Positions 1,608-1,770 of a DNA stretch of 36,205 bases are shown in pieces. The position numbers were made by a program, and so were the translations under genes. The stretch lies in the IMG/VR virus record IMGVR_UViG_3300021400_005610, one strand, 5' to 3'. Every line of letters starts with the position of its first letter. Within the stretch, counting starts at the first letter, position 1. Source of the stretch: a virus. Taxonomy: Duplodnaviria; Heunggongvirae; Uroviricota; Caudoviricetes. The notes beneath the pieces were generated by a model. It saw only the letters and a list, made by a program, of their open reading frames with translations, did not search any database and was not told the DNA's origin.

Positions 1608-1770
1608 TGGTGGGAGAGGAAGGAGTCGAACCTTCATCACGGGATTAAGAGTCCTCATAAAATGTTGCTGTCTGAATCCCATCCTGTTGAATCGACACAT
1701 CAATTGGGGTGATAATGTGGTCACAGGATTCAATATGTGTTGTCGTGTTCTACCATTGAACTACCCTCCC
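1608..1770 (-). tRNA. tRNA-Lys(CUU) split by an 89-nt insertion between tRNA positions 28 and 29
   Basis: 5' exon 1744-1770 GGGAGGG-TA-GTTC-AATGGTA-GAAC-A-CG. 3' exon 1608-1654 GGA-CT-CTT-AA-TCCCG-TGAT-GAAGG-TTCGACT-CCTTC-CTCTCCC-A-CCA. Joined, they give a 74-nt cloverleaf with a perfect CGGGA/TCCCG anticodon stem. Confidence 0.9.
1655..1743 (-). other. 89-nt tRNA insertion/putative intron containing a circularly permuted ACAGCAA motif (unit 4)
   Basis: Minus strand: GAATCC-TGT (1723-1731) precedes ATG-GGATTC-AG-ACAGCAA (1665-1682), so the two stem strands are in the reverse order to units 1, 2, 3 and 5. Confidence 0.8.

Follow-up and report, generated by a model that had tools for sequence, protein, structure and literature searches.

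A tRNA-shaped RNA gene with a conserved side arm, probably a Y-like partner of a predicted Ro60-like DUF2828 protein, in a Caudoviricetes virus

Particles composed of Ro60 and Y RNAs occur in animals and in about 5% of bacteria, and some phages have them as well. Here, we describe a gene on the minus strand of the 36,205-nucleotide (nt) DNA of a Caudoviricetes virus, IMG/VR record IMGVR_UViG_3300021400_005610 (this whole stretch is referred to as the window hereafter). The gene encodes a tRNA-shaped RNA whose anticodon stem is interrupted by a structured module, called the handle below, and it lies 120 nt upstream of a gene for a protein with DUF2828 and DUF7788 (vWA) domains. The locus is probably a non-decoding, unspliced, tRNA-scaffolded Y-like partner RNA of this Ro60-like DUF2828-vWA protein, that is, a functional analogue of YrlA. 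The tRNA-shaped RNA would most likely belong to a family of Y-RNA-like partners that is widespread and apparently has not been described. An unspliced Y-like RNA is favoured because the handle is conserved, the decoding features drift, and forms that cannot be spliced exist among the relatives. The features and their positions are collected in Table 1.

The Rfam tRNA model (RF00005) covers 1611-1770 (minus strand) end to end with 43.4 bits (gathering score, 29; E value, 3.7e-6 over the whole window), and in its alignment the 89 nt of the insert form a single long insertion within the anticodon stem. The cloverleaf with its 7-base-pair (bp) acceptor stem, the D arm, the T arm, the tertiary nucleotides and the score are all those of this family: U8, A14, G18 and G19, the UUCGA T loop, and C61 were all found to be present in a check of the sequence. 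A contiguous 5-bp anticodon stem with a 7-nt loop is absent from the gene product, the stem being split 2+3 bp by the insert between positions 28 and 29 on its 5′ strand. ARAGORN makes no call on the intact gene; after deletion of the insert, its call is a tRNA-Lys(ctt) of 74 bases, in which the 5-bp anticodon stem is perfect and U33, A37, A73, and CCA are present. Since the remaining body is so good that nearly any excision is called when ARAGORN is run after every possible excision, an explicit split-stem test was used instead. The body is 70-74% identical to the tRNAs for Asn, Thr, Met, and Lys alike, in a comparison with 198 distinct tRNAs of the loci. Four elements make up the side arm: a short helix formed by the linkers, the 6-bp stem P1 with U.G/G.U on its flanks, two unpaired bases, and ACAGCAA in single-stranded form. 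The same module occurs in four simple units near the gene, which read UG-stem-NN-ACAGCAA-variable-stem′-UG; in the insert it is circularly permuted, with the stem strands in reverse order and the tRNA in place of the variable part. The handle is, accordingly, capped by a loop in the tRNA body and open in the four simple RNAs. Both the restorable tRNA-Lys(CUU) body and the permuted module had been proposed in the initial annotation of this DNA, and both readings hold.

The contigs encoding the closest DUF2828 proteins were compared with the window, and the window together with five of them (designated by L numbers) gave a six-way alignment. In L087, L002, L089, and L003 (protein identities of 97, 88, 86, and 81%, respectively), the same tRNA-shaped gene is located between the last two simple units, and L084 (55%) carries it there as well. 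In all five orthologues the handle enters after C27-G28, namely at 28/29, and its sequence GAATCCUG is invariant. Across the six sequences, GAAUCCUG, the GG.UUC strand, CAGC.A of the core, C27-G28/C42-G43, and the T-loop letters do not change, and no other part of the RNA is as well conserved among the orthologues as the handle. According to the initial annotation, a decayed tRNA with a chance insertion would be indicated if the insert varied freely in homologues, with neither the stem nor ACAGCAA conserved; the orthologues keep the handle. The stems of the tRNA body covary: the acceptor stem reads GGGAGGG, GGGGAGA, GGGAAGA, GGAAGGG, or GGAUGGG, and its 3′ strand matches in every case; the inner 3 bp of the anticodon-like hairpin read GGA/UCC, GGU/ACC, CGG/CCG, or CGC/GCG. 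The linkers of L087 are longer by 6 and 10 nt and are still complementary, which supports the short linker helix. The closing loop of the handle has 46 nt in the window and in L087, and 7-11 nt in the other orthologues.

The anticodon, the loop length, and the discriminator, on which membership among decoding tRNA-Lys genes depends, are not conserved among the orthologues. The window and L087 share the 7-nt loop CUCUUAA with the triplet CUU; L002 has CUAAAAC (triplet AAA) and L084 has CUACUAA (triplet ACU); the loops of L089 (CUUUUUUAA) and L003 (UUUGAUAAU) have 9 nt. ACCA of the window is CCUA in L087, and A73-CCA is thus lost in the relative with 97% protein identity. A comparable contrast is seen in three near-identical carriers from rumen metagenomes (L105:484-599, L113:788-904, and L116), which have one anticodon-like arm (UCG|GGU...ACCCGA) with the loops CUUGAAA, CUGCAAA, and AUGUUAA: the differences are confined to position 32 and the three central bases. 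A scan of metagenomes with the pattern GAAUCCUG...GGRUUC-NN-ACAGCAA gave 37 loci, mostly chance matches in coding DNA or tandem open units, and about eight of them are tRNA-framed carriers. Judging from the orthologue series, the decoding features of the tRNA body appear not to be under selection.

The handles are concentrated in the array around the gene. The pattern UG-N8-ACAGCAA is found six times in the 36 kb, and five of these copies are on the minus strand within 1547-2134; the chance expectation is 0.47, and none of 100 shuffles reached six. One promoter-like site is located upstream of the array at 3988-3960, and there is no minus-strand terminator inside it. The last open unit stops 12-16 nt ahead of the DUF2828 start codon in nearly all of the related loci (L002-L084). 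Because this unit abuts the ribosome-binding site in nearly all loci, it is suggested that DUF2828 is autoregulated through its own handle there. As a separate observation, a perfect 10-bp hairpin (1586-1607, minus strand) directly follows the CCA of the tRNA-shaped RNA and precedes the last simple unit. It is kept in L087, and a different hairpin sequence stands in its place in L002; no U run follows it, so that it is not a typical terminator.

The same arrangement was found far beyond the closest relatives. Eighty IMG/VR loci at 54-61% identity were gathered through the alignment of DUF2828 proteins, and the counts below refer to 84 loci. On the gene strand, the handle scan gave 249 copies of the open form and 77 of the loop-capped form; the opposite strand had one and none, respectively. 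An ACAGCAA-type core followed by a T arm within 50 nt occurs 197 times on the gene strand, in 77 of the 84 loci, and never on the other strand. Among the loop-capped copies, 47 distinct ones are framed by a 6-7-bp acceptor stem and a 5-bp T stem, and most of these also have a D arm, UA-GCUC-AGUUGGUA-GAGC. When 24 carriers were aligned by MAFFT and analysed by RNAalifold, three stems were recovered (acceptor, P1, and T; the closing U.G of P1 is conserved), with double-sided changes at 14 of the 19 pairs. The Rfam tRNA model, for its part, reports "tRNAs" of 113-144 nt at the places of the carriers in 15 of 20 loci. In a set of 40 carriers, the core is ACAGCAA in 34 and GCAGCAA, ACAGCGA, or GCAGCGA in the others, and the closing loop has 6 nt in 31; a loop of 46 nt is found only in the window copy, whose insert of 89 nt compares with about 45 nt in relatives. 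CCA is not encoded in most carriers.

The carriers are diverse in the anticodon region. In many lineages the stem is split 2+3 or 3+2 with the 7-nt loop [C/A]-U-NNN-A-A, and the triplets include GCU, UAC, UGA, ACU, GGA, and UCC. "Anticodons" of the Ser type or with A34 (GCU, ACU, UGA, GGA, AAA) are found on bodies with a short variable arm, and in four lineages Ser anticodons stand on bodies with a variable loop of 4-5 nt. The carrier at L045:2306 has an intact 5-bp anticodon stem and the handle in the loop position. Some carriers have no clean anticodon hairpin, and those at L015, L045:2702, and L056:2322, with 93-106 nt, have no anticodon arm at all. In L001, closed modules consisting of a T arm, a 7-bp acceptor hairpin, and a D arm are inside an open handle, which is the architecture of YrlA. 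Such arm-less and closed-acceptor forms could never be spliced into a tRNA.

The protein encoded beside the array matches only DUF2828, DUF7788, and, weakly, VWA in Pfam, with no match to TROVE (PF05731), and a profile search of the PDB sequences did not find Ro60. Its predicted fold gives another picture. A structure model built with 24 homologues (predicted local distance difference test, pLDDT, of 88) was searched against the PDB, and the 13 best matches, all with E values below 1e-3, were Ro60, Rsr, and TROVE structures, including phage Ro60 and the TROVE-domain crystal structure; these matches extend over the whole length (about 550 columns) with template modelling (TM) scores of 0.30-0.57. 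In Swiss-Prot, fold matches 1-5 were the Ro60 proteins of Deinococcus, mouse, worm, frog, and human; telomerase p80 and TEP1, which are TROVE proteins, came next. A search of the AlphaFold clusters returned many eukaryotic DUF7788 proteins. The protein is predicted, on the support of fold and not of sequence, to be a helical-repeat ring with a C-terminal vWA domain like Ro60, in agreement with its earlier description as Ro-like.

Among the known systems, the closest one is that of the YrlA-type Y RNAs of bacteria and phages with Ro60/Rsr (RF02553), and the logic is the same: a small RNA gene lies beside the gene for a Ro-shaped, TROVE+vWA-type protein; a protein-binding helix is combined with a tRNA-like module of T arm, D arm, and acceptor stem; and several such RNAs occur per locus. 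Both features of a YrlA-type RNA, the place beside a Ro60-type protein gene and the T/D/acceptor module, are present here, the protein being of that type by its predicted fold. The differences are equally clear. DUF2828/DUF7788 is another sequence family than Ro60/Rsr, the handle consists of P1 with ACAGCAA where YrlA has a Ro-binding helix with GNCGAAN0-1G, the RNA ends are the acceptor ends owing to a circular permutation of the gene, and the anticodon-like hairpin is retained. The YrlA model (gathering score, 69) gave no match on 1490-2140 at E values up to 10; the only match in the neighbourhood was one of 17.3 bits at 3445-3541. An open acceptor end has a precedent in Mycobacterium smegmatis, whose YrlA is cut by RNase P and given CCA in vivo (Chen et al. 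2014; PMC4201824).

The open handle, for its part, resembles the dictyostelid Class I RNAs (RF01414), in which a short stem joins the ends, CUUACAGCAA lies by the 5′ strand, the variable middle is A/U-rich, and the 3′ strand is followed by CUG. Units C, B, and A align to the Class I model over its full length with 36.5, 28.0, and 26.7 bits, all below the gathering score of 41.5, and share with it the stem, (C)UUACAGCAA, the A/U-rich middle, the stem, and CUG. The permuted copy in the tRNA body cannot be aligned by this model. Class I RNAs are reported to be unique to Dictyostelia, and their known binder is an RRM protein (Kjellin et al. 2021; PMC7919456); the hosts there are amoebae, not phages or plasmids, and the tRNA-embedded form is not described in that paper. 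The searches of the literature and of Rfam found no paper on DUF2828-associated RNAs and no family for the DUF2828-associated handle RNA. A review of jumbo phages mentions only TROVE proteins "with a tRNA-like partner", and megablast against phage records gave only tRNA-Pro matches.

There is also a laboratory counterpart of the design. In the "tRNA scaffold" that Ponchon and Dardel reportedly engineered in 2007, a recombinant RNA is inserted into the anticodon stem of a tRNA. The likeness lies in a foreign structured RNA held in a tRNA anticodon arm, with the scaffold giving correct end processing and stability; unlike that design, the RNA described here occurs naturally, is conserved, and retains next to the graft a small anticodon-like hairpin.

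A Y-like RNA of this kind might work as follows. The array would be transcribed together with the upstream tRNAs and the DUF2828 gene, and RNase P and RNase Z would free the RNA as a pre-tRNA look-alike, with the CCA-adding enzyme acting where CCA is not encoded. The 89-nt insert would stay in the RNA, no splicing taking place; the halves of the anticodon stem would stack, and the handle would project as a side arm, on whose P1 and ACAGCAA the DUF2828 ring would dock. The particle would then display a tRNA body with an anticodon-loop-shaped tip. In the Rsr-YrlA system, the ring is tethered to PNPase, and the tRNA module is recognised by TruB, DusA, RNase P, and the CCA enzyme; by analogy, the ring here may be tethered to a tRNA-binding enzyme, compete for one, or act on tRNAs. 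The element has a large tRNA set of its own, and the particle might, for example, serve to check the quality of these tRNAs, repair them, or protect them. As the U-turn-like loop is kept while its central bases are free, it is suggested that the tip is recognised by its shape and is not read as a codon partner.

This observation can be extended into a bolder proposal, joined here with another: either the carriers are tRNA baits displayed on a Ro-like ring against host anticodon nucleases, or the handle-protein pair is ancestral to, or shared with, that of the amoebal Class I RNAs. We regard this joint claim as unlikely. For the baits, the argument is that the three central bases change fast (CUU, AAA, and ACU; UGA, GCA, and GUU on one arm) within a U-turn-shaped loop, [C/A]-U-NNN-A-A, that is otherwise maintained. 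Such RNAs may act as decoys, sense the damage done by anticodon nucleases to the element's own tRNAs, or hand over the damaged tRNAs for repair. A link of the tRNA-shaped RNA to PrrC or PARIS, raised in the initial annotation, is speculation.

Several points weigh against an unspliced Y-like RNA. The link between the protein and the RNA rests on the gene neighbourhood and the predicted fold. Folds of single sequences by minimum free energy are no better than those of shuffles (z = -1.1 to -1.4), and for the window copy the D arm is mispaired. As the handle scan demanded perfect P1 pairing, the statistic of 100% paired is partly circular; the independent controls are the strand asymmetry, RNAalifold, and the Rfam tRNA model. 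Most lineages keep the 7-nt loop [C/A]-U-NNN-A-A on a 5-bp stem that becomes perfect after excision. Such a loop is not obviously needed by a mere scaffold, and the anticodon-like tip therefore probably matters somehow; a processed form of the carrier RNA may exist. Moreover, the gene following DUF2828 in L089 (86% identity) encodes an RNA ligase (PF09414).

Another possibility is that the 89 nt act as an intron whose removal depends on proteins: DUF2828 bound to the handle would direct a nuclease to cut at 28/29 on both sides, and an RtcB- or Rnl-type ligase would join the halves into a working tRNA-Lys(CUU). Its appeal is that exact excision yields a canonical 74-nt tRNA, that excision would likewise leave many relatives with a 5-bp stem and a 7-nt loop, and that, besides the ligase gene just mentioned, RtcB is present in one related phage genome. 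RtcB is missing, however, from the other four of the five complete related viral genomes. Splicing of the orthologues would yield Lys-CUU, Phe-AAA, or Ser-ACU on nearly one body, or loops of 9 nt; bacterial tRNA-Ser has a long extra (variable) arm, which the four lineages with Ser anticodons do not have, and A34 anticodons (AAA and ACU) occur. The conserved part is the insert and not the anticodon of the exon, the loop length drifts, A73-CCA is altered in the closest relative, and the handle also occurs in carriers that have no anticodon arm and around closed-acceptor modules. Nor does the insert resemble a known intron, despite its place in the anticodon arm and its exact removability, as the initial annotation had stated. 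The bacterial group I and II tRNA introns sit in the anticodon loop and have a ribozyme core of at least 200 nt, whereas the insert has 89 nt, lies in the stem at 28/29, and gave no match to the intron families even at E values up to 10. By inspection, both junctions are on one stem strand at a three-way junction, and the end of exon 1 (CG) pairs 14 nt into exon 2, so that the 3-4-3 bulge-helix-bulge of archaeal and eukaryal introns is impossible. Finally, the exon-junction pattern of an uninterrupted gene copy was not found in the viral contigs. We therefore consider splicing very unlikely. Of the two options offered in the initial annotation, the new protein-dependent splicing route is disfavoured by the drift of the anticodon and loop length, the lost A73-CCA, and the rarity of RtcB, whereas the unspliced tRNA bearing a handle for DUF2828 is backed by the predicted fold, the conservation of the handle, and its recurrence in 77 of the 84 loci; the intact anticodon envisaged in that second option is present in this copy without being conserved.

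Two further explanations were weighed. The tRNA body could be mainly a processing signal, or punctuation, by which RNase P and RNase Z would divide the long transcript of the array, with the handle units as functional RNAs or cis-regulatory sites and the handle within the body incidental or regulating the processing. Unit C stops 6 nt before G1 of the tRNA-shaped RNA, a simple unit in L003 begins 4 nt after a normal tRNA, the array has a single promoter-like site and no internal terminator, and the last unit abuts the ribosome-binding site, which suggests autoregulation. But the normal tRNAs of the same arrays could already do this job, and punctuation leaves unexplained both the fixed place of the handle in the tRNA body with the invariant GAAUCCUG across orthologues and the keeping of at least one such carrier in 77 of the 84 loci. 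As a full account it is quite improbable; it is, nevertheless, compatible with a Y-like RNA and does not exclude it. The other explanation, a decayed tRNA-Lys pseudogene with a functionless chance copy of a locally repeated element, might be read into the missing ARAGORN call and into the unusually long closing loop (46 nt) of the window copy. It is close to refuted by the comparative data, and we give it hardly any credence: the stems are all intact, with compensatory changes between orthologues at 55-97% protein identity; the nucleotides for the tertiary interactions are kept; and the strand bias is strict, with recurrence in dozens of lineages.

Table 1. Positions of the tRNA-shaped RNA gene, its parts, the simple handle units, and the neighbouring protein gene in the window
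Feature	Coordinates	Strand	Basis or remark
Whole tRNA-shaped RNA gene with handle, 163 nt including encoded A73-CCA	1608..1770	-	Rfam tRNA 43.4 bits, model positions 1-71
5′ tRNA part (27 nt): acceptor 5′ strand GGGAGGG, U8 A9, D arm GUUC-AAUGGUA-GAAC, A26, C27 G28	1744..1770	-	7/7 acceptor pairs, 4/4 D-stem pairs
Insert, 89 nt	1655..1743	-	Sequence reading
Insert 5′ linker, 12 nt; CAUA able to pair with UAUG of the 3′ linker (short helix P2)	1732..1743	-	Sequence; L087 linkers
Handle stem P1, 3′-type strand GAAUCC, then UG	1726..1731	-	GAAUCCUG invariant in six orthologues; P1 in RNAalifold
Closing loop of permuted handle, 46 nt: UG + 42 nt + UG	1680..1725	-	Unusually long; relatives 6-11 nt
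Handle stem P1, 5′-type strand GGAUUC	1674..1679	-	Sequence
AG spacer (2 bases) and conserved single-stranded core ACAGCAA (1671-1665)	1665..1673	-	Sequence, carrier comparison
Insert 3′ linker, 10 nt, CAUUUUAUGA	1655..1664	-	Sequence
3′ tRNA part, 47 nt	1608..1654	-	Sequence
Inner anticodon-like hairpin GGA-CUCUUAA-UCC and C42 G43 pairing with C27 G28 across the junction	1640..1654	-	Sequence; inner 3 bp covary
Variable loop UGAU, T arm GAAGG-UUCGACU-CCUUC, acceptor 3′ strand CUCUCCC, A73, CCA	1608..1639	-	Rfam tRNA, sequence
Simple handle unit A	2057..2132	-	Rfam Dicty_Class_I_RNA alignment
Simple handle unit B	1881..1950	-	Rfam Dicty_Class_I_RNA alignment
Simple handle unit C; 6 nt separate its end from G1 of the tRNA-shaped RNA	1777..1870	-	Rfam Dicty_Class_I_RNA alignment, 36.5 bits
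Simple handle unit E in the 5′ untranslated region of DUF2828; 3′ strand and UGA abut the ribosome-binding site AAGGAG	1503..1563	-	Sequence
DUF2828 + DUF7788 (vWA) protein, 495 amino acids (aa)	1..1488	-	Pfam E values 5e-38 and 2e-38

The window as a whole is rich in structured RNAs, holding nine tRNAs, a transfer-messenger RNA (tmRNA), and a ROOL RNA. The full-length ROOL RNA (17422-18031, minus strand, 279 bits) and the tmRNA (20122-20523, minus strand, tag ANNNYGYALAA) are both in the second tRNA cluster. At 3433-3498 (minus strand), a 66-nt tRNA-shaped gene with 49.7 bits in the Rfam tRNA model has an acceptor stem, a D arm, and a T arm, without an anticodon loop; it is not called by ARAGORN, has no ACAGCAA handle, and overlaps the weak YrlA match given above. 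Between the tRNA genes there are G+C-rich spacers of 280-390 nt (2260-2555, 2710-3095, and 3500-3780, minus strand), which are poor in open reading frames except for a 58-aa minus-strand frame at 2889-3065. The spacer by tRNA-Leu is conserved in L087, and similar long spacers are found in L002; the spacers may represent additional structured RNAs belonging to the array. Two sortase genes and then a gene for a 626-aa Cna-B/SpaA-type pilin-like protein occupy 4070-8364 (plus strand) and are divergent from the RNA array. In close relatives, the genes just downstream of DUF2828 are RNA-centred (L089:3028-3669, L004:2336-2776, L002:7646-8005, and L003:6344-6451) and encode an RNA ligase (PF09414), the peptidyl-tRNA hydrolase PTH2, an RnlB-type antitoxin, and a KTI12/AAA_33 kinase-like protein. 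The RtcB gene in the phage of L034 is 20 kb away.

The locus described here would belong to a second and much more phage-rich system, with another protein sequence family and another RNA handle, and its tRNA-embedded form would be a natural graft of a protein-docking arm on a complete tRNA body with open, processable ends. To this form, the window copy adds a complete body down to A73-CCA and a Lys-like anticodon arm, together with a series of orthologues. Annotators should be warned that such genes are, on the reading favoured here, neither tRNA pseudogenes nor intron-bearing tRNAs. As the open handle is nearly identical to the Class I RNAs, what Class I RNAs bind could become testable. If the handle-protein pair is indeed shared with the amoebal Class I RNAs, a candidate protein partner for these RNAs would be at hand.

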